64,000 bases of DNA from Marinobacter sp. (GTDB taxonomy: Bacteria > Pseudomonadota > Gammaproteobacteria > Pseudomonadales > Oleiphilaceae): NCBI GenBank assembly GCA_046260345.1, contig JBHEPI010000135.1:190-64189 (forward strand), in the 5' to 3' direction. Below the pieces are notes generated by a model that was not told where the DNA came from, ran no database searches, and was given only the letters and a program-made list of their open reading frames with translations. A program made the position numbers and the translations under genes. Shown piece by piece: positions 13,148 to 21,451 of the stretch. Within the stretch, counting starts at the first letter, position 1, and every line of letters starts with the position of its first letter.

Positions 13148-14581
13148 TTATATCTGCTTGTGCACAACCTCGGACAGCCGGCTCCGATTGCCGTCGGTAT
13201 CAAGGGTGCGGATGGCGAAGTACCAGTTGCCTTCTGTAAGCTCATCCACCAGCAGTTCGTCGATCGAGGCATCACCAATGGCGAGGTTCCGGTCCAGGGT
13301 TTCTTCGCTTTTACCGTAGACCACCTCAAAGCCGGCGATTTCACCCATGGACAGGCTTTCGCCATTTTCACGGGTGAGCGGTGCAGTCCAGCTCAGTAGT
13401 GCAGTGTTGGCTGGAATGATGTCTTCAGGAGAAGTTTCCGTTGCCGGTGGCTCGCTGGCTTCAGTTTCCGTGTCGGCGACGGTGTCTCCGGTGTTGCCGT
13501 CGACAGTTGTGGTATCTTCGGTCTCATCAGCCAGTTCGGTGTCGCCGGTGTTGTCACCCGTCGTATCCTCTGTGGGGTCGGAAGCTGTGCTGTCTGTGTC
13601 TGCCAGGCTGGTATCGCTGTCTTGGTAAACGTCTGCAAGGGTCTTGAAACGTTGCACGTTGCGGTGCTCAACCACCGCAAGTCGCTGGCTGATGATGCTC
13701 GAATCGACGGTGGCCTGAAGTTCGGACGCCTGCACCGCTGCCGCGGTAACGAGATCTGCCAGAGCTATGTTCACTCCATCCCCCATCAGGCTGATCCGCC
13801 CGGTTTCACTTGCCTGCATGGCCAGGTTATTCAATACATCGGAAATGGTGTCCCATTGGGCATTGTCGTTCACCAGTGCGAGGAAAGCGGCATTGGCAAT
13901 AGCAACATGCAAGGCGTCTGCAGACACACTGCCGGATTCATCCAGCCGGGTCAGGTCCGGTGGGGCCAGTCGCAGGGAGCCGGCTGTCAGGCCAAACCAG
14001 TCCTCTACCGTTTCATAGGCTTTGGAGATAGCTTTGGGAGAAAGCCCGTTGGGGGTGCGTTCAGCGAGGTTTACGGCCAGGTGGGTCAGCGGGGTCAGGT
14101 TGACGGTTTCCATTTGTAGGTCGCCTGCGCCGCGCAGCCTGAAACTACTGTCCAGCCCCATTGGGTGGCCGAAGGCAATCGGCTCGGCGTCCCTCTGTAT
14201 GCATTGGGGGACCACGTCGCAAATCATGCGGGTGTTCCCGTCTGCCCGAAGCTCTACCAGGGCCCAGCTATCTGCCTTCCCGCGCAGCTGCCACGTGTAA
14301 CTACCGTTGTCGTCGGTCAATACCGGCTTTGCAGCCTGTCTTTGTGGGGTGTAGTTGCCGTCTTTGTCGGCAGTCAGTCGGTTGGCTGTTACCAGCCCCT
14401 GTTGAATCACCCCTTTCATGGCAGCGCCGGCAATCTCAACGGTCGGCTCATTTGGGCCCTCAGACTGCGCCACTGTGCTGTTGTCGTTGGAAGTAATGTC
14501 CAGACCGCAGCCCGAGAGCAGGGTCACCGCAGAAATCATCAGCAGTCCAAGCTTCGATATTTTATGGCCGCAATATGACAT
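13148..14581 (-). CDS. Lipoprotein with acidic Thr/Asp-rich linker and C-terminal fibronectin type III domain
   Basis: LLSGC lipobox; LSWTAP..RENG, G.WYFAIRT.D..G..S..S FN3 motifs. Confidence 0.82.
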   Translation of the reverse strand: MSYCGHKISKLGLLMISAVTLLSGCGLDITSNDNSTVAQSEGPNEPTVEIAGAAMKGVIQQGLVTANRLTADKDGNYTPQRQAAKPVLTDDNGSYTWQLRGKADSWALVELRADGNTRMICDVVPQCIQRDAEPIAFGHPMGLDSSFRLRGAGDLQMETVNLTPLTHLAVNLAERTPNGLSPKAISKAYETVEDWFGLTAGSLRLAPPDLTRLDESGSVSADALHVAIANAAFLALVNDNAQWDTISDVLNNLAMQASETGRISLMGDGVNIALADLVTAAAVQASELQATVDSSIISQRLAVVEHRNVQRFKTLADVYQDSDTSLADTDSTASDPTEDTTGDNTGDTELADETEDTTTVDGNTGDTVADTETEASEPPATETSPEDIIPANTALLSWTAPLTRENGESLSMGEIAGFEVVYGKSEETLDRNLAIGDASIDELLVDELTEGNWYFAIRTLDTDGNRSRLSEVVHKQI

Positions 14582-14941
14582 TTTTTGCACCAATTTTTTG
14601 ACGAATTTGAGCAAATCATACAGTGGCGGTTTTGGGTTATATGAGGTCTGGATCTGGTTTTAAAGACAGGTTTCGTCAGTAAACTGGCGTTTACGGAAGG
14701 AAACATGTTGAGATAGAAACTTACGTGCTTCGTACTCTCGGTACGCTTTTTAATCTATTGTTTTTATAGGGTTTATTGGATCTGTGGTGAGTGGTGGCCA
14801 GGTGCCCGGACGGTGCAATAGCGAAGAGGAATTACAAATTTATACACGCCTGAAAAGCTGACAGAGACAAAAACTCCTGTATCGCTGGCGTCCGCCTTCC
14901 CAGGAGAGGGGCGAGGGTCAGTTGGGGTTGTCGCCTGGCCG

Positions 14942-15475
14942 TCACCGGTTGGTGGCGTAGTAGTTGGGTATGCCGGCACGCTGCCATTGCTCGAATGGTA
15001 TGAATCTCCCCGGCCAGGCAATGGCCTTGAAGGGCCAGTCAGTGCTTATCCAGTCAATAACCTCATCTTCTATCAGTTGCGCACGCTCTGCATCAAGGTC
15101 AATGTGCGTCCATAGATAGGCTTCGGCATCGTGTCTGATGCTGGCTGAAGGGTAGAGGTACAGGCACCCTAGGCACCGTTGCTGATCGTGACTCAGCAGG
15201 TGATAGGCGAATGAGCGGCGGGTTTCGAATTCCCGGGCATGCCATGCAAGGTCAGCTTCATCCATTTCCAGGTTTAGATTCTCCGGTGGCCATGGGTCCT
15301 CTGGCCCGAAGAAGTGCCGAAGCTTGTCTTGGCTTTCGATAACAGCCGCATAGTCCAGTTCAACCCACTCCGGGCCGGCAGGAACCAGCAGAGCCCGCAT
15401 GCCCCGCCACTGTGTCGGCACAGCAAAACCATCAATGGGTAGCGAGTGAAAGTCCTTTTCTGAACTAGGCCGCAT
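14942..15475 (-). CDS. GNAT-like N-acetyltransferase family protein
   Basis: DYAAV, WP, DL.WH..EF..R.SFAY, GCLYLYP, WPF pattern; start overlaps the ATPase stop. Confidence 0.6.
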   Translation of the reverse strand: MRPSSEKDFHSLPIDGFAVPTQWRGMRALLVPAGPEWVELDYAAVIESQDKLRHFFGPEDPWPPENLNLEMDEADLAWHAREFETRRSFAYHLLSHDQQRCLGCLYLYPSASIRHDAEAYLWTHIDLDAERAQLIEDEVIDWISTDWPFKAIAWPGRFIPFEQWQRAGIPNYYATNR

Positions 15476-16256
15476 CGCGCCCTTCGTCTCGCATCAGCCG
15501 GCGAATATGAATCTCCAGTCGCCGATAGTCGTCGGATTGCAGGAATGCCTCACGGTCGTTCTGTGGCAGCCCGGCTTTGAAATCGGTGTAAATGGTTTCC
15601 TTCAGCCGCCCCGGGTGGCGGGACAGGAAGAAAACAACGTCGCCCAGGTACAGTGCTTCTTCGATATCATGAGATACGGCCATGACGGTGGTGCGCTCCT
15701 TGCGAACCACGTTCAACAGAAGGTCCTGCATCTGCCAACGGGTTTCCGGGTCCAGGGCGCCGAAAGGTTCGTCCATGAGGAGCAAGTCCGGATAATTGGC
15801 GAGGGTTCGCGCAATGGCCACTCGCTGTCGCATGCCTCCGGAAAGCTGATGGGGGTAGGCGTCTGCGAATTTTTCCAGGCCAACAGCGCGGATGAAGTGA
15901 TCAACGGAGCCTTCGTTGAGCGCGCTGCTGTCACCATTGATTTTGAGGCCATAGGCGACGTTGTCGCGCACGGTCAGCCACGGAAACGAGGTGTAGTCCT
16001 GAAACACCATGCCCCGGTCACGGCCAGGCTGATCGACCGCCCGGCCATTGAGGCTGATGTCGCCCTCCGAGGGTTTCTCCAGTCCGGCCACCATGCGCAA
16101 CAGGGTGGATTTGCCGCAGCCGGAGGGGCCGAGCAAAACACCCACCTTGCCTGCGGGCAGTGACAGCGAAATGTCATCCAGCGCCAGAATGGTGCGACCA
16201 CCAGACCGGAAGGTTTTGCTGATGCCGGACACCGAGAGACCCTTGGTGGAAAGCAT
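15465..16256 (-). CDS. NitT/TauT-family ABC transporter ATP-binding protein
   Basis: GPSGCGKST, LSGGMRQR, LLMDEPFGALD. Confidence 0.95.
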   Translation of the reverse strand: MLSTKGLSVSGISKTFRSGGRTILALDDISLSLPAGKVGVLLGPSGCGKSTLLRMVAGLEKPSEGDISLNGRAVDQPGRDRGMVFQDYTSFPWLTVRDNVAYGLKINGDSSALNEGSVDHFIRAVGLEKFADAYPHQLSGGMRQRVAIARTLANYPDLLLMDEPFGALDPETRWQMQDLLLNVVRKERTTVMAVSHDIEEALYLGDVVFFLSRHPGRLKETIYTDFKAGLPQNDREAFLQSDDYRRLEIHIRRLMRDEGRDAA

Positions 16257-16270
16257 GGCGATGACTCCTT

Positions 16271-17305
16271 TTACTGACCGGACTCAAGGATGGTTTTCAG
16301 CGGTGTCATATCCACCCCTGCTTCCATCGGATGACGTTGCTCAATGAGTCCGAATTTTAGCCACCAGTCGGTAACCGTTTCCCAGTTTTCCGTAACCTGG
16401 CCATTGGGCAGGCCCAGGGGCAGCTCACCGGGCACCAGGCCCATATATTTCGCAGCCTGAGTCTTGTCGAATATCCAGATGCCGCCCTTGTGGATTTCAC
16501 CAGTTGAGCCGATGACTTTTTCAACATCAGACACCGGAAATCTCAGCGCCTTGGCAATGATTTCGTTGGCCTCGGCGGGGTTTTCCTTCCAGAAGTCCAC
16601 GGCATCGAAGTAGGCCTGCATCGTCTTGGCAGCGATTTCAGGCTTGTTTTCCAGAAACGTGTCACTCATGTACATGGCATCACCCAGCAGGGCCGTTTCA
16701 ATCCAGCCGGGCTCTTCCGAGGAGGCGGCAACAGTGGAACCAGGCAGTGCGTCCAGCGCCTGGGAGCCAAACGGTTCCCAGAATTCAGCGGCGCTGACAT
16801 CACCACCAACCAGTGCACCCACGGCATCGTCCATAATCAGGTTGGTGAATTCGACTTCGTCGATGCCAACACCGTTTTCTTCCAGCCATATGCCCATGAA
16901 AATCTGGGTCAGGCCGCCTTCGAGTACTGCGACGGATTCGCCCCGGAGGTCCTCAGCGCTCTCGATTCCGGGCGCAAGCACGATTTTGTCAGTGCCATAG
17001 GACGGATTGGTATAGGTGACCATCTTGATCGGGACGCCTTTGTCTGCCGCGATCGGAGCGTATTCTGCGGTGCTGGACGTGACATCCAGTGCATCTGCAG
17101 ACATCAGTGCGAAACTCTCGTAAGGGTCTTCGATAATGGTGATTTCAAAGTCGAGATCCGGTGCCAGGTTTTTTTCCTGAGCGATAAACCAGAAACCATA
17201 GCCCGGCCATGAAAACAGCGACAGGCGCACCGTTTCTGCCGACAGGGCATTTCCCGAAATCAGGGCAAGCATAGCTATACAGAGACCACGTTTAAGCCAG
17301 TCCAT
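16271..17305 (-). CDS. NitT/TauT-family (SsuA/NMT1-like) ABC substrate-binding protein
   Basis: Signal peptide, WPGYG, S.G.D, EDLRG..VAV, WEPF. Confidence 0.9.
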   Translation of the reverse strand: MDWLKRGLCIAMLALISGNALSAETVRLSLFSWPGYGFWFIAQEKNLAPDLDFEITIIEDPYESFALMSADALDVTSSTAEYAPIAADKGVPIKMVTYTNPSYGTDKIVLAPGIESAEDLRGESVAVLEGGLTQIFMGIWLEENGVGIDEVEFTNLIMDDAVGALVGGDVSAAEFWEPFGSQALDALPGSTVAASSEEPGWIETALLGDAMYMSDTFLENKPEIAAKTMQAYFDAVDFWKENPAEANEIIAKALRFPVSDVEKVIGSTGEIHKGGIWIFDKTQAAKYMGLVPGELPLGLPNGQVTENWETVTDWWLKFGLIEQRHPMEAGVDMTPLKTILESGQ

Positions 17306-17353
17306 TTTGTATTACCTCTTGGGTTGGAAAATACATCTGGTCGAGCGCCCTCA

Positions 17354-18229
17354 TCAGGAGTGCCCTCGGCCGAGATAGGGAAAGCATTTGCGGTAAACCA
17401 GCCTGAACAGAACGTCGAACAGTAGGCCGAGTACGCCGATGGTGACGATGCCCGCCATGATGTCGTCTACATGCACAAAGCGTTTGGCCCGCATCATCAT
17501 GGCCCCGATGCCGTCGGTTGCGGCGACAATTTCAGCGATCACCAGGTAAGTCCAGCTTACTGCCAGCATCTGCCGGCAGGTATCCACATAACCGGGGAGT
17601 GAGTGACGAAAGAGCACAGTCCACAGAATAATGCGGCGCCCGCCACCCAGCGTTTTAGCGGTTTCGATCAATACCTTTGGCGTTTGTCGGGTGACATCGG
17701 CAAGCATGATGACCAGGAAGAACACCACGCCCATCAATAGCAGCGTTATCTTCTGGGTATCTCCGGTGCCCAGCCACATCAGCAGCAGCGGAATAAAGGC
17801 CGGCGCCGGCAGATAACGCCAGGCACCAAGCAGCGGATTGAGCACACCGTCTACCCGGGCAAACGAACCCATCAACAGCCCAATAGGCAGAGCGATCAGG
17901 ATAGCGATGCCAAAGCTGATCACGATACGGGTGACACTCGATATCACGTCGCTGAAAAAGTCTTTCTCGAGGAATAACTCCTGCAGTGAACTGAAAACAG
18001 CCATGGGTCCGGGATACAGGCGATCCGGCGCCAGGCCCATCTGCGAGGTAATCTGCCAGAGCAGAAGAAAGGCAATCCAGCCCATGGCGCCCAGGACCAG
18101 ACGCTGAATACCCGGAATCGACTGATTGAAATCGAACCAGTAATCCGACCGTTTCTGCGCCTTATTAGCAGTGGCTTTTTCCGTGGCCATCGCTTGTGGT
18201 GTCGCTTTGTCCGAGAGCTTTGCGGTCAT
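17354..18229 (-). CDS. NitT/TauT-family ABC transporter permease
   Basis: Six TM helices, RYLPAPAFIPL, EAA-like ETAKTLGG, WTYLVIAE. Confidence 0.93.
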   Translation of the reverse strand: MTAKLSDKATPQAMATEKATANKAQKRSDYWFDFNQSIPGIQRLVLGAMGWIAFLLLWQITSQMGLAPDRLYPGPMAVFSSLQELFLEKDFFSDVISSVTRIVISFGIAILIALPIGLLMGSFARVDGVLNPLLGAWRYLPAPAFIPLLLMWLGTGDTQKITLLLMGVVFFLVIMLADVTRQTPKVLIETAKTLGGGRRIILWTVLFRHSLPGYVDTCRQMLAVSWTYLVIAEIVAATDGIGAMMMRAKRFVHVDDIMAGIVTIGVLGLLFDVLFRLVYRKCFPYLGRGHS

Positions 18230-18239
18230 TGGTTTAACC

Positions 18240-19256
18240 TCAGAAAGCCGTCAGGAAGCTGAGCCCGTAAACCGGAACGGCTTTGCCATCATGCAATGCT
18301 TCGGGTACCTCAACCTGCCCGTAGGTTTCTGCGTAGATGCCGTCGAGACGGTTGCGGTGATAGCTCCTGAGCTGTCCTTTCATGCCGACAGTGCGGGTGT
18401 AGGCGTTGCCAAACAGTTCGTTATGCAGCGCCGGCAGTTTGTACCAGGGCATCGTGGGCTTGGCATGGTGCGCATTGTGGTAGCAGAAATTGAGCACCAG
18501 TAGATTCAGGACGGGCCAGCGGCGTGAAATCAGATTGCTGTAGGTGTTGTCCTGTTCGTATTCGCGGTCGCCTTTCCGGGGCAATTCCGCGTCCGGGGCT
18601 TTCAGGTTGACCACGATTTCATAGTTGTGCTGATAGGCATCAAAGAATCGCAGCACCATGAGCATCAGCAGATAGGCGAGGGCGTACAACAGAACGGCTT
18701 TCATACTCCAGATAGCCAGCGCCACGAGCACCGCTACACGGGTCAGCAGAACAGCTACAAGGCGTTTTCTCAGCGAGCTTGTGCCAATGCGCGTAAAAGG
18801 TGCCACCATCAGCACGGCGTGCATCAGAATGTCGACGGCCGGGATGTAGCACCACTCCAGGGCAAAAACGATTTTTTCGGTTCCGGGATGGGCCTTCAGC
18901 CATTCGCGGTAATCGAATGAAATCGGATCGGCGTTGTCCACATGATGTCGCATGTGCTTGTACCGCAGATCTTCGTAGGTGCCATAGCTGCCACCCGTTA
19001 TCCAGTTAAGCAGTCTGCCCAGGCGGGTATTGTGTTCGGTCTTTTTAAAGATGGCATTGTGGGCGCAGTCATGCACAAGGTAAGCAGCGATTACCATGCC
19101 GTGGGCGCAGGCGAGCACGCCGAATGCCGGCAGTAAAAATCCCGGCTGGGCCATCAATAGCCAGCCGCCAATGTATGTCGTGAGAATGTAGGCCAGGACA
19201 AGCGTCAGCGGCCATACACCGTCCGAATGGCGAAGATGCTGAGTAATGTTGGGCAT
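18240..19256 (-). CDS. Membrane di-iron fatty-acid-desaturase-superfamily enzyme
   Basis: Three His boxes HDCAH, HMRHH, HNAHH plus TM segments; AGGAG RBS before ATG 19256. Confidence 0.9.
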   Translation of the reverse strand: MPNITQHLRHSDGVWPLTLVLAYILTTYIGGWLLMAQPGFLLPAFGVLACAHGMVIAAYLVHDCAHNAIFKKTEHNTRLGRLLNWITGGSYGTYEDLRYKHMRHHVDNADPISFDYREWLKAHPGTEKIVFALEWCYIPAVDILMHAVLMVAPFTRIGTSSLRKRLVAVLLTRVAVLVALAIWSMKAVLLYALAYLLMLMVLRFFDAYQHNYEIVVNLKAPDAELPRKGDREYEQDNTYSNLISRRWPVLNLLVLNFCYHNAHHAKPTMPWYKLPALHNELFGNAYTRTVGMKGQLRSYHRNRLDGIYAETYGQVEVPEALHDGKAVPVYGLSFLTAF

Positions 19257-19294
19257 GGTCCTGTTGTCTCCTGTAGATTCTGGACGATAAAGCG

Positions 19295-20167
19295 TCAGGC
19301 GATTTTCGAAGATTGGGCAGCTGAGGATTGCCAGCGCTTGAAGTGCGACAGTTCCTCTTCCCCGATCCATCGATTGAGAGACCAGAGATCGGCAATGGGT
19401 GCCTGGGTGAACGGCAGCAGGTGCAGGTAGCCATCGGTTCCGAATTCGGGAGTCATGTAGCTGTATTCCAGTCCCCGTTCGGACTGTGATTGCCACACCG
19501 CTTCCCAGCAGGCCTGGTGCGAGGCCAGCGCCTCGGCGTACTCGGGTGCGGCCGGGTGTGGTACCTGTGGGCCCTGGTCGTAGCCAACGCGGGAGTGAAT
19601 GTGGCGCGCCTGCTCAGCCGTTCTCACTATGCAGTCCCACTCGATGTGTGGCAGGCGTTCGCTGACCACTGCCCAGTGGCTGAAATCACAGGTGACGTCG
19701 ATGTGGGGCACTTTCTCCAGAATGGCGACCGTGTTCCATGGGCTGAAAAAACTGCGGCCCCGGTGGGTTTCGAAACTGACCGGAATGCCGAGCCTGTCAG
19801 CAATGTTCTGGGCTTCGGAGAAAAAGCGTATTGAGTCATCGATGGGCCATGCGTCACAGCCGCCCATTACATTGACAAATTCCGGCTTCAGGCCGGTTCT
19901 GGTAGCGCTCAGCAGCTTGGTTTCGAAATCTTCCAGATGTTCTGTGATGCTGGCATTGCGTCGCGGGACGTAGCTCCCGGTGGTACAGACTTCCTGAACC
20001 CACAGGAGTTTGTTCGCGGTCAGAGTCTCACCAAAGGCATGAGCCGCCTGGGCGGTTCCAGGCACAGGCGCCTCGATACCATCAAATCCGGCCTCGTTGA
20101 CCTGATCAACGGCTTGCGCCAATGAGCCTTCATGTCCCCATAAAGTTTTGAAGCGTTTCAGGTGCAC
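19295..20167 (-). CDS. Xylose-isomerase-like TIM barrel (sugar phosphate isomerase/epimerase family)
   Basis: AGFDGIE, ETHRGR, DFSHW, HIHSRVG, TPEFG metal-site motifs; GTG 20167 with GAGGGAG RBS. Confidence 0.85.
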   Translation of the reverse strand: MHLKRFKTLWGHEGSLAQAVDQVNEAGFDGIEAPVPGTAQAAHAFGETLTANKLLWVQEVCTTGSYVPRRNASITEHLEDFETKLLSATRTGLKPEFVNVMGGCDAWPIDDSIRFFSEAQNIADRLGIPVSFETHRGRSFFSPWNTVAILEKVPHIDVTCDFSHWAVVSERLPHIEWDCIVRTAEQARHIHSRVGYDQGPQVPHPAAPEYAEALASHQACWEAVWQSQSERGLEYSYMTPEFGTDGYLHLLPFTQAPIADLWSLNRWIGEEELSHFKRWQSSAAQSSKIA

Positions 20168-20210
20168 GGATGACTCCCTCATAGTTTTGCTGGATATATG
20201 GAGTCTTGGT

Positions 20211-20226
20211 TGCAACCGTTGTGCCA
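20211..20226 (-). promoter_or_regulatory. Sigma54 (-24/-12) promoter of the 14942-20167 operon
   Basis: Minus strand reads TGGCACAACGGTTGCA, an exact TGGCAC-N5-TTGCA match, 43 nt upstream of the GTG start. Confidence 0.85.
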
Positions 20227-20249
20227 TATGCCTGGAAACGCTTTAAATA

Positions 20250-20265
20250 TACATGCTGACATGTA
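20250..20265. promoter_or_regulatory. Palindromic putative operator TACATG-N4-CATGTA
   Basis: Perfect 6-bp inverted repeat between the sigma54 promoter and the enhancer-like sites. Confidence 0.4.
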
Positions 20266-20303
20266 AAAGGTGGGCGGTCAGGGTCGTTTTTTGGCGGGTT
20301 TTG

Positions 20304-20339
20304 TGTTGGTGATTGGTGCAGCTGCACATGGGTGGTGCG
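20304..20339. promoter_or_regulatory. NtrC-like upstream activator sites
   Basis: TGCACA-TGGGT-GGTGCG (20323-20339) versus consensus TGCACC-N5-GGTGCA; adjacent perfect half-site GGTGCA (20315-20320); about 100 bp upstream of the -24 element. Confidence 0.6.
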
Positions 20340-20551: not shown

Positions 20552-21451
20552 ATGAGATCGGTTGTACTTCTGGATGGTGGCCTTGGCCAGGAAATCTATC
20601 GGAGGGCTCGCAGTGTCAGTTCTCCACTATGGTCCGTGGCGGTGATGCTGGAGCAACCCGAGGTTGTCACGGCGGTGCATGCGGATTTTATCCGTGCCGG
20701 GGCCAGGACCCTGTCGCTGAATACCTACGCGGCGACACCAACCCGCTTGCGTGAGCAGGGGATGCACGAACAGATGGCGGAGGTTCATCAGCAAGCCTTT
20801 GATGCCCTCGAGCGTGCTATCACTGAGACCGGCGCAGAGGTGGATATTGCAGGTTGTCTGGGCCCACTGACCGGCAGCTATCGGGGCCAGCCTGACCGCG
20901 CCTTTAAAGATCTGAGAAACGAATATTCCACACTGGTCCGGTTGCAGGCCGACGCCGATGTGTTCCTGATCGAAACCATGACCAACAGCCTGGAAGCCCG
21001 CGCTGCGTGTGCCGCAGCGAGCGAGGCAGGTAAGCCCTATGGCGTGGCCTTTCGTCTTGAGGAGGATGGCAGGCTGAAATCCGGTGAATCGCTGGCCGAA
21101 GCGGTCTCATCAGTGAAAAGCTACGCGCCCACCGCTATTATGCTGAACTGCTGCGACCCCGAAGTGTTGACTGCCAGCATGCCCGAACTGGCTGGGCTTT
21201 ATCCGTGTGTGGGCGGTTATGCCAATGCTTTCAAGTCGGTACAGGCGATGGCCGATGGCGGTCTGGCTGATGCTCTGGAGGCGCGGGCGGATATTTCACC
21301 GAGTGCCTATGCTGCGCATGTGCAGCGTTGGCTGGCGGAGGGTGCAAGCGTTGTTGGTGGCTGTTGCGAAATTACGCCCGGGCACATTCGCCATCTAGCC
21401 GATACGCTTGCAGATGAGTTCGAGTCTGTCCGTTTTTCTGAGCTGGTTTAG
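20552..21451 (+). CDS. Homocysteine S-methyltransferase family protein (MmuM/BHMT-like)
   Basis: LLDGGLGQE, PLWS, FIRAGA, IETM, LNC and GGCC Zn ligands. Confidence 0.92.
   Translation: MRSVVLLDGGLGQEIYRRARSVSSPLWSVAVMLEQPEVVTAVHADFIRAGARTLSLNTYAATPTRLREQGMHEQMAEVHQQAFDALERAITETGAEVDIAGCLGPLTGSYRGQPDRAFKDLRNEYSTLVRLQADADVFLIETMTNSLEARAACAAASEAGKPYGVAFRLEEDGRLKSGESLAEAVSSVKSYAPTAIMLNCCDPEVLTASMPELAGLYPCVGGYANAFKSVQAMADGGLADALEARADISPSAYAAHVQRWLAEGASVVGGCCEITPGHIRHLADTLADEFESVRFSELV

Follow-up and report, generated by a model that had tools for sequence, protein, structure and literature searches.

Background

Bacterial guanidine metabolism has been recognised only through riboswitches, and to our knowledge the natural sources of guanidine and methylguanidines are largely unknown. 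In Vreelandella (Halomonas) boliviensis, the 2-oxoglutarate (2OG) dioxygenase MgdH hydroxylates methylguanidine and a dedicated lyase, MgdL, splits the unexpectedly stable N-(hydroxymethyl)guanidine, the products being guanidine and formaldehyde, and both enzymes are encoded within a riboswitch-controlled gca operon (Sinn et al., Nat Commun 2025, PMC12508155). Here we analysed an operon on the minus strand (14942-20167) of a 64,000-nucleotide stretch of Marinobacter sp. DNA (contig JBHEPI010000135.1), referred to as the window, which encodes a TIM-barrel protein, a protein of the fatty acid desaturase family and an ATP-binding cassette (ABC) importer. We give an about even chance to the interpretation that this operon would serve, under the control of NtrC and sigma54, the scavenging of a small substituted guanidine during nitrogen starvation, via oxidative dealkylation to free guanidine.

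The enzyme pair proposed here is similar to MgdH and MgdL in that an oxygenase is followed by a dedicated second enzyme and in that the proposed end use is nitrogen assimilation via free guanidine. Furthermore, MgdH and MgdL, like relatives of the pair at three other loci (L026, L028, and L029), are encoded beside a NitT/TauT-type importer and guanidine carboxylase genes, under guanidine riboswitches. In contrast to MgdH, which is a soluble 2OG dioxygenase, the oxygenase of the window is a membrane di-iron protein of the FA_desaturase family (PF00487); MgdL is a beta-barrel of 250 amino acids (aa), whereas the second enzyme of the window is a metal-dependent TIM barrel of 290 aa; and the genes for MgdH and MgdL are riboswitch-controlled in the gca operon, whereas the copy in the window carries sigma54/NtrC-type signals and is unlinked to gca. 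Homology between the TIM barrel and MgdL was rejected by sequence inspection and a motif scan, which revealed no shared motif, and the MgdL core motif (WHADxRxP, with the catalytic D49/R51) was detected neither in six-frame translations of the genome nor in any fetched locus. The resemblance is thus one of proposed function and not of evolutionary origin, and the system would be a counterpart of the MgdH/MgdL feeder step that is not homologous to it and is regulated differently.

Three other groups of described systems are relevant. Guanidine carboxylase operons, which encode Gca, CgdAB (the DUF1989 family), allophanate hydrolase, and a NitT/TauT importer, have the same importer family as the operon in the window, and relatives of the pair are embedded there, whereas the operon itself contains none of the pathway enzymes. 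The ethylene-forming enzyme, whose family hydroxylates arginine next to the guanidino nitrogen, and the plant homoarginine-6-hydroxylases hydroxylate the carbon on a guanidino nitrogen, after which guanidine is released, which is the chemistry proposed here; they belong to a different enzyme family from the window's oxygenase, we know of no second protein that they need, and a protein similar to the ethylene-forming enzyme is an alternative partner of the TIM-barrel family, as described below. GntB and MocD, the latter a proposed rhizopine demethylase, are members of the same superfamily as the window's oxygenase and have the same eight-histidine motif (MocD being likened by description), and they show that the membrane di-iron family is not restricted to lipids. 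MocD is presumably encoded beside the TIM-barrel protein MocC, as was stated in the original prediction, which had been made from the DNA sequence of the window; the moc cluster differs by its sugar-type binding protein, Rieske ferredoxin, and reductase, none of which is found in the operon. A literature search yielded no paper linking the desaturase and TIM-barrel families to guanidine or to each other, and none describing a pathway with this gene set, in agreement with the original prediction, which knew of no characterised one.

Genomic context of the enzyme pair in other bacteria

In the window, the pair consists of a xylose-isomerase-like TIM-barrel protein (19295-20167, minus strand; PF01261 at 31.6 bits against a cut-off of 31.1) and the FA_desaturase-family membrane di-iron protein (18240-19256, minus strand; 338 aa; PF00487 at 134 bits against a cut-off of 29.7). 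The loci of distant homologs (40-50% identity) were scanned with Pfam and Rfam. In L026, the order of the elements is a Guanidine-I riboswitch, an ABC importer, a creatininase-family gene, a gene similar to type-III glutamine synthetase (GS-like), a Guanidine-II riboswitch, the oxygenase, the TIM barrel, a further Guanidine-I riboswitch, DUF1989 (CgdA/B family), a carboxylase, and allophanate hydrolase. In L029, the start codon of the oxygenase gene is preceded, at a distance of 9-12 nucleotides (nt), by the end of a canonical Guanidine-II riboswitch, which has two GGGACGACCC hairpins, and the TIM barrel follows the oxygenase; a Guanidine-II riboswitch is therefore located directly 5' of the oxygenase gene in two unrelated genomes. 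The pair adjoins a Guanidine-I-controlled importer and cgdAB in L028. In L030, the pair and cgdAB share a contig and are approximately 7 kb apart, and the pair is accompanied by genes for two creatininase-family proteins, a GS-like protein, and a glutamine amidotransferase. Because the pair sits in operons for sensing and degrading guanidine in these bacteria, its most likely function is to convert a substituted guanidine to the free compound.

Guanidine riboswitches usually govern genes that handle guanidine directly, and the position of the Guanidine-II riboswitch before the oxygenase gene could accordingly be taken to mean that free guanidine is itself the substrate of the pair and would, for instance, be oxygenated, in an alternative or auxiliary route of degradation or detoxification instead of guanidine production. 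This appears improbable for several reasons: the pair never replaces Gca/CgdAB or a ureohydrolase and always accompanies them, as expected of a feeder step; the known chemistry of the di-iron family is C-H hydroxylation, and guanidine has no carbon-bound hydrogen; and a separate Guanidine-I-controlled transporter is present in the Marinobacter lineage. In addition, the precedent of MgdH/MgdL puts feeder enzymes under guanidine riboswitches too (PMC12508155).

The production of free guanidine from a substituted one is also consistent with what was found in a sister clade of the TIM-barrel family (L027 and L041-L045), in which there is no desaturase-family partner and the gene after the TIM barrel encodes a 2OG/Fe(II) oxygenase; among solved structures, an ethylene-forming enzyme is closest to it (E = 6e-56). 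The neighbours in this clade encode an agmatinase-family ureohydrolase (L027 and L044), a lysine/arginine/ornithine-type binding protein, a class II aldolase, and a GhrA-like dehydrogenase. The fact that a soluble 2OG oxygenase takes the place of the membrane di-iron oxygenase here argues that the "desaturase" acts as an oxygenase on a small soluble molecule, and the same swap argues that the TIM barrel handles the product of the oxygenase; we regard this as strong evidence, from gene content, for such putative roles of the two proteins.

A homolog of the 2OG oxygenases similar to the ethylene-forming enzyme was also observed in the window's genome (G000), on contig C214 (C214:11100-16800). 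It is 37% identical to those partnered with a TIM barrel and has two sigma54 consensus promoters and an ABC ATPase gene in its vicinity, and this region may be another nitrogen-scavenging unit.

Co-occurrence with the guanidine carboxylase pathway

The window's genome is a Marinobacter metagenome-assembled genome (3.39 Mb, 224 contigs, 86.6% complete), the closest named relative of which is Marinobacter sp. ATCH36. Public data contain about 2,500 members of the TIM-barrel family, mostly from marine Gammaproteobacteria, and the distribution of the family is sparse, with carriers making up 10 of the 401 genomes of a class sample and 9 of the 401 genomes of a phylum sample. In the class sample, DUF1989 was found in all ten TIM-positive genomes versus 48 of the 391 (12%) TIM-negative genomes (Fisher p = 2e-9), and when G000 was left out and each genus was represented by a single genome, p was 1e-7. 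The 48 background genomes include one that is unpublished (G039), and dropping it changes nothing material. Seven further carriers of a true homolog, from the phylum sample, all have paired DUF1989 genes, which brings the total to 17/17 carriers, and a genome with only a 31%-identical TIM-barrel outlier has no such paired genes. The cgdAB genes are present also in Marinobacter genomes without the cassette, which suggests that the cassette is an add-on to an existing guanidine pathway.

Two Guanidine-I riboswitches were identified in the window's own genome. The first, on contig C199, is located directly 5' of a DUF1989 (cgdA-type) gene at a broken contig end, and the second, on contig C28, precedes the genes for a NitT/TauT permease and an ATPase. 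In the closest complete relative (G613), the corresponding intact region consists of a riboswitch followed by the permease and ATPase genes, the GS-like gene, and a second riboswitch followed by cgdA, cgdB, and the carboxylase gene (gca). The original prediction stated that no deaminase is encoded in the operon and that this activity would act in trans or the chemistry would be new; the guanidine link was missed. The role of this "missing deaminase" most probably falls to the guanidine carboxylase pathway, whose genes are located in another part of the genome under Guanidine-I riboswitches.

The riboswitch unit of C28 (C28:22500-28600, or L053:8357-13750) has no binding-protein gene adjoining the permease and ATPase genes, and L059:900-5300 is arranged alike. 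Upstream of it are genes for an alpha/beta hydrolase, a divergent type-III GS-like protein, and a TetR protein; this GS-like/TetR/hydrolase unit also flanks the cassette in Halieaceae. On contig C187 (C187:8000-21946, L052), a full-length biotin carboxylase/carboxyltransferase of 1210 aa and an allophanate hydrolase are encoded, and they adjoin a divergent gene for an Urt-type periplasmic binding protein (Peripla_BP_5); four more open reading frames fit urtBCDE by size alone. These two enzymes were considered as guanidine enzymes and rejected, since beside an Urt-type binding protein they are probably a urea amidolyase instead, and no riboswitch was found in L052.

The possibility that the operon scavenges nitrogen from a compound other than a guanidine, such as an alkylamine, N-methyltaurine or another taurine derivative, a creatinine-type lactam, or a quaternary amine, has to be considered at this point. 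The di-iron enzyme would then hydroxylate next to a nitrogen to yield ammonia or a small amine, and the guanidine link would result from a general clustering of nitrogen-scavenging modules. This would be consistent with the taurine and sulfonate systems that are the nearest named relatives of the transporter, with the recurrence of type-III GS-like and creatininase-family genes beside the pair, as for amine or amide routes, and with an operon that has no riboswitch and belongs to a separate sigma54 clade in the tree of the TIM-barrel family. We nevertheless consider it rather unlikely, because general clustering does not readily account for a Guanidine-II riboswitch directly before the oxygenase gene in two unrelated genomes, for the location of the pair between a riboswitch and cgdAB in L026, or for co-occurrence with DUF1989 in every one of the carriers, and because the partners in the sister clade, similar to the ethylene-forming enzyme and to agmatinase, point to guanidino chemistry.

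Properties of the oxygenase, the TIM barrel and the importer

The protein encoded by the desaturase-like gene has the three His boxes HDCAH (62), HMRHH (101), and HNAHH (260), which are invariant in 27 homologs together with further histidines, and four hydrophobic spans, at about 17-63 and 136-208. The His boxes, which follow the patterns HX3-4H, HX2-3HH, and HX2-3HH, and the four spans place it in the FA_desaturase superfamily (PF00487). Assignment to the acyl-lipid or acyl-CoA desaturases is not warranted, given a context of an importer, a TIM barrel, and guanidine genes, and the curated NCBIfam models of lipid desaturases all scored far below their cut-offs, the best being DesA with 37.6 bits against 500. 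A weak full-length match to GntB, an L-arginine gamma-hydroxylase, was obtained (E = 1e-6, 28 bits against a cut-off of 380). The start of the gene, judged from the alignment of orthologous loci, is an internal ATG, so that the protein begins MPNITQ.

Names such as fatty acid desaturase or delta-12 desaturase, given to these proteins in Pfam and other databases, would fit an enzyme that desaturates or hydroxylates lipids, serves membrane remodelling during nitrogen starvation, and is unrelated in function to its neighbours. It is very unlikely that the protein is a lipid enzyme, and this explanation as a whole has in our opinion next to no chance of being correct. Besides the low scores of every lipid-desaturase model, the gene is tightly linked to those for the TIM barrel and the ABC importer across genera, with overlapping reading frames in Halieaceae, a soluble 2OG oxygenase takes its place in the sister clade, and homologs are under guanidine riboswitch control. 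The original prediction had already doubted a lipid function, and both the conserved linkage and the swap or riboswitch control in other genomes bear out that doubt.

The TIM barrel has the features of the xylose isomerase-like family (PF01261), namely a (beta/alpha)8 fold and a Glu-Asp-His-Glu metal site, but is distant from all solved structures. Its AlphaFold model (pLDDT 88) matched ketose 3-epimerases, UlaE, IolE, and AsbF in Foldseek at a template modelling (TM) score of about 0.6 and 10-17% identity, with a Foldseek probability of 1.0 for the epimerases, IolE, and AsbF. The 33 homologs compared, which represent the three genomic contexts, all share E133, H135, D161, H164, H189, and E241, and many acidic and tryptophan residues are invariant as well; the Glu-Asp-His-Glu metal ligands correspond to E133, D161, H189, and E241. 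The invariance of the active-site residues across the three contexts suggests that the chemistry is conserved. Neither the TIM barrel nor the oxygenase, nor the 177-aa protein encoded at the end of the operon, had an informative relative among solved structures in a sequence search.

The importer is of the NitT/TauT type, with a binding protein, a permease, and an ATPase encoded together on the minus strand. The permease (17354-18229; BPD_transp_1, PF00528) has its best NCBIfam matches with TauC, SaoP, and SsuC, all of which are below the cut-offs. The periplasmic substrate-binding protein (16271-17305; NMT1/SsuA family, PF09084 and PF13379), which has a signal peptide-like N-terminus, matches SsuA_fam at 4.5e-30, below the cut-off; its closest solved structure is TauA (E = 3e-6), and it is approximately 30% identical to binding proteins of riboswitch-controlled guanidine operons. 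The ATPase (15465-16256; PF00005) is similar to TauB, SaoA, and NrtCD. The substrate-specific equivalog models for taurine, sulfonate, nitrate, and "urea" (uca) importers all scored below their cut-offs, and a lead from NCBIfam to the SaoX/SaoP transporter was dropped, as it belongs to an unrelated selenoprotein-associated system.

Regulatory region of the operon

The alignment of orthologous loci indicates that the true start of the TIM-barrel gene is a conserved GTG at 20167; an ATG at 20227 was rejected as the start because it falls within the sigma54 promoter. This -24/-12 promoter, TGGCACAACGGTTGCA (20211-20226, minus strand), is an exact match to TGGCAC-N5-TTGCA, with the GG and GC doublets 10 nt apart in TGGCAC-N5-TTGCW, and is located 44 nt upstream of the start codon. 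It is the sole exact consensus site in the window and one of 11 sites for TGGCAY-N5-TTGCW in the 3.39-Mb assembly. When up to one mismatch is allowed, 2.1 sites are expected per window, and the motif alone is then not significant. The motif is found 51-73 nt 5' of the TIM-barrel gene in 15/15 of the related loci that were fetched first, which include three other lineages (Halopseudomonas, Halieaceae, and Methylophaga), and upstream of this gene in 23/33 of all loci examined.

Two NtrC-type upstream activator sites are arranged in tandem between 20304 and 20339, at about -113 and -94 from the promoter. Site 1, CGCACCACCCATGTGCA (20323-20339, minus strand), is a GCAC-N9-GTGC dyad with two mismatches to TGCACC-N5-GGTGCA, and site 2, which begins with TGCACCAATCACC (20304-20320, minus strand), has a TGCACCA half-site and a degenerate second half. 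Their position is kept across 13 Marinobacter-type loci, in which the GCAC/GTGC half-sites are retained while the spacers vary, and this is the signature of a protein-binding dyad. The TGCAC half-site of site 2 is near-invariant in the Marinobacter alignment, and a full dyad, TGCACCAAACGATTGCA, is found in L006. The genome encodes NtrC (765 bits against a curated cut-off of 558.6) and RpoN, so that tandem upstream dyads at enhancer distance are found together with both ntrC and rpoN, as in an NtrC regulon. The sigma54/NtrC observation is well beyond chance. It agrees with the original prediction in each of its regulatory points, namely the exact promoter, the NtrC-like boxes at enhancer distance, and predicted control of the sigma54/NtrC type.

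Between the enhancer and the promoter lies a further element (20241-20268, with no strand assigned), which is the most conserved block of the intergenic alignment and contains the palindrome TACATG-N4-CATGTA (20250-20265) and the A/T-rich TATATTTAAAG. The TTTACATGC/GCATGTAAA half-sites are also present in the Halopseudomonas, Methylophaga, and G176 loci and are not found in Halieaceae. The palindrome occurs once in the 3.39-Mb assembly, and a search for the conserved TTACATG element near other nitrogen or guanidine genes yielded only single matches at chance level. The element may be a DNA-bending site or the site of a second regulator.

Proposed pathway

What the analysis shows is the gene content, the conservation of the regulatory signals and of gene order, the linkage of relatives to riboswitches, and the co-occurrence with guanidine pathway genes; from this we infer which class of substrate is used, what the two enzymes catalyse, in which direction the flux runs, and that the operon depends on NtrC. 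According to the proposed pathway, NtrC and sigma54 would turn on the operon during nitrogen starvation, and the NitT/TauT importer would take up a small substituted guanidine. The membrane di-iron enzyme would then hydroxylate the carbon bonded to the guanidino nitrogen, with an electron donor encoded elsewhere, and the metal-dependent TIM barrel would process the hydroxylated intermediate, most simply by cleavage of a hemiaminal to free guanidine and an aldehyde. The guanidine could in turn induce the Guanidine-I riboswitch-controlled cgdAB-gca genes elsewhere in the genome, whose products, together with allophanate hydrolase, would yield ammonium. Our leading guess for the substrate is methylguanidine or a close small alkylguanidine; taurocyamine, guanidinoacetate, and creatine-type compounds are in play as well, because of the sulfonate-like transporter family and the creatininase neighbours.

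Several points weigh against this pathway. The Rfam scan of the window gave no match, so that the operon has no riboswitch, and in the closest complete relative it is located approximately 440 kb from the gca genes. The nearest named relatives of the binding protein bind sulfonates, and no electron donor for the oxygenase is encoded nearby. The TIM barrel is unrelated to MgdL, and a lyase role is therefore assigned by analogy only. In a midpoint-rooted tree of the TIM-barrel family, the members from sigma54 cassettes cluster together with moderate support (86/68), a second group comprises the members partnered with a 2OG oxygenase, and those linked to riboswitches or gca are outside both; since the sigma54-cassette members are a clade of their own, if only at 86/68, their substrate specificity may have drifted. 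Furthermore, the co-occurrence of the TIM barrel and DUF1989 could result in part from a shared nitrogen-poor marine habitat, and related genomes are not independent.

It is conceivable, at somewhat less than even chances, that the pair is a second, non-homologous, and more widespread system that frees guanidine from substituted guanidines, and that in the ocean this system is tied to the general nitrogen-starvation response instead of guanidine sensing. In that case, alkylated or otherwise substituted guanidines would be a real and actively harvested part of marine dissolved organic nitrogen, and the xylose-isomerase-like TIM barrel would gain a new activity of the hemiaminal-lyase type. If the proposed pathway is correct, a function would be assigned to two families that so far carry only the annotations "fatty acid desaturase" and "sugar phosphate isomerase", and several thousand database annotations would be corrected. 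Membrane di-iron oxygenases would be extended to small polar nitrogen compounds, Marinobacter, Halieaceae, Alcanivoracaceae, and Methylophaga would invest in substituted guanidines as a starvation nitrogen source, and the operon would offer a testable entry point.

Conserved and accessory genes

Although the original prediction counted five genes in the operon, six co-oriented genes are present on the minus strand between 14942 and 20167, and all of those predicted are real. The conserved unit consists of five of them, in the order TIM barrel, oxygenase, permease, binding protein, and ATPase. This cassette was found in Marinobacter, Halopseudomonas, Halieaceae, Methylophaga, Alloalcanivorax, and uncultured Gammaproteobacteria, with unrelated flanks, and one copy adjoins integrases. 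Its carriers within Marinobacter include ATCH36, M. vulgaris F01, and M. shengliensis SL013A34A2. The gene-neighbourhood analysis of desaturase and TIM-barrel homologs that had been suggested as a check thus revealed five-gene synteny conserved across genera. No minus-strand terminator was found in a scan downstream of the operon.

The sixth gene (14942-15475, minus strand) encodes an accessory GNAT-fold protein of 177 aa and overlaps the ATPase gene by 11 nt. The earlier description of this protein as GNAT-like holds at the level of the fold only: its AlphaFold model (pLDDT 96) matched RimJ/RimL/MccE-type GNATs at a TM score of about 0.5, the protein has no Pfam match of its own, and PF13302 was matched by 7/40 of its relatives. 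The gene is full-length only in L002, L003, and L010, fragmentary in L001/L060 and L004, and absent from every locus outside Marinobacter. It was therefore rejected as a core component, being complete in few Marinobacter and broken up in the closest complete relative, and the suggestion that its product completes nitrogen release does not apply to the conserved system, as the gene is missing outside a subset of Marinobacter. In that relative (L060:6508-6805), the GNAT-fold gene consists of two short fragments, while the TIM barrel is 95% identical to that of the window.

A divergent gene for homocysteine S-methyltransferase (20552-21451) was likewise rejected as a member of the system, because its position varies in Marinobacter and it is absent from the loci of other genera. 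In G613, it is located downstream of the operon, versus upstream in the window. The patchy and mobile occurrence of the GNAT-fold and homocysteine S-methyltransferase genes among the loci indicates that both are accessory.

On the 3' side of the operon, a gene at 13148-14614 (minus strand) encodes a 488-aa protein, for which no PADLOC or Pfam match was obtained, and is syntenic in several Marinobacter (L001-L004). A Marinobacter-type cassette with 81-86% protein identity was also found on a 6.4-kb contig (L010, CAXPUI010000551.1) of a metagenome-assembled genome labelled Candidatus Fonsibacter ubiquis. It clusters with Marinobacter sp. F3R08 in the tree, and by these comparisons it is probably a mis-binned Marinobacter contig.

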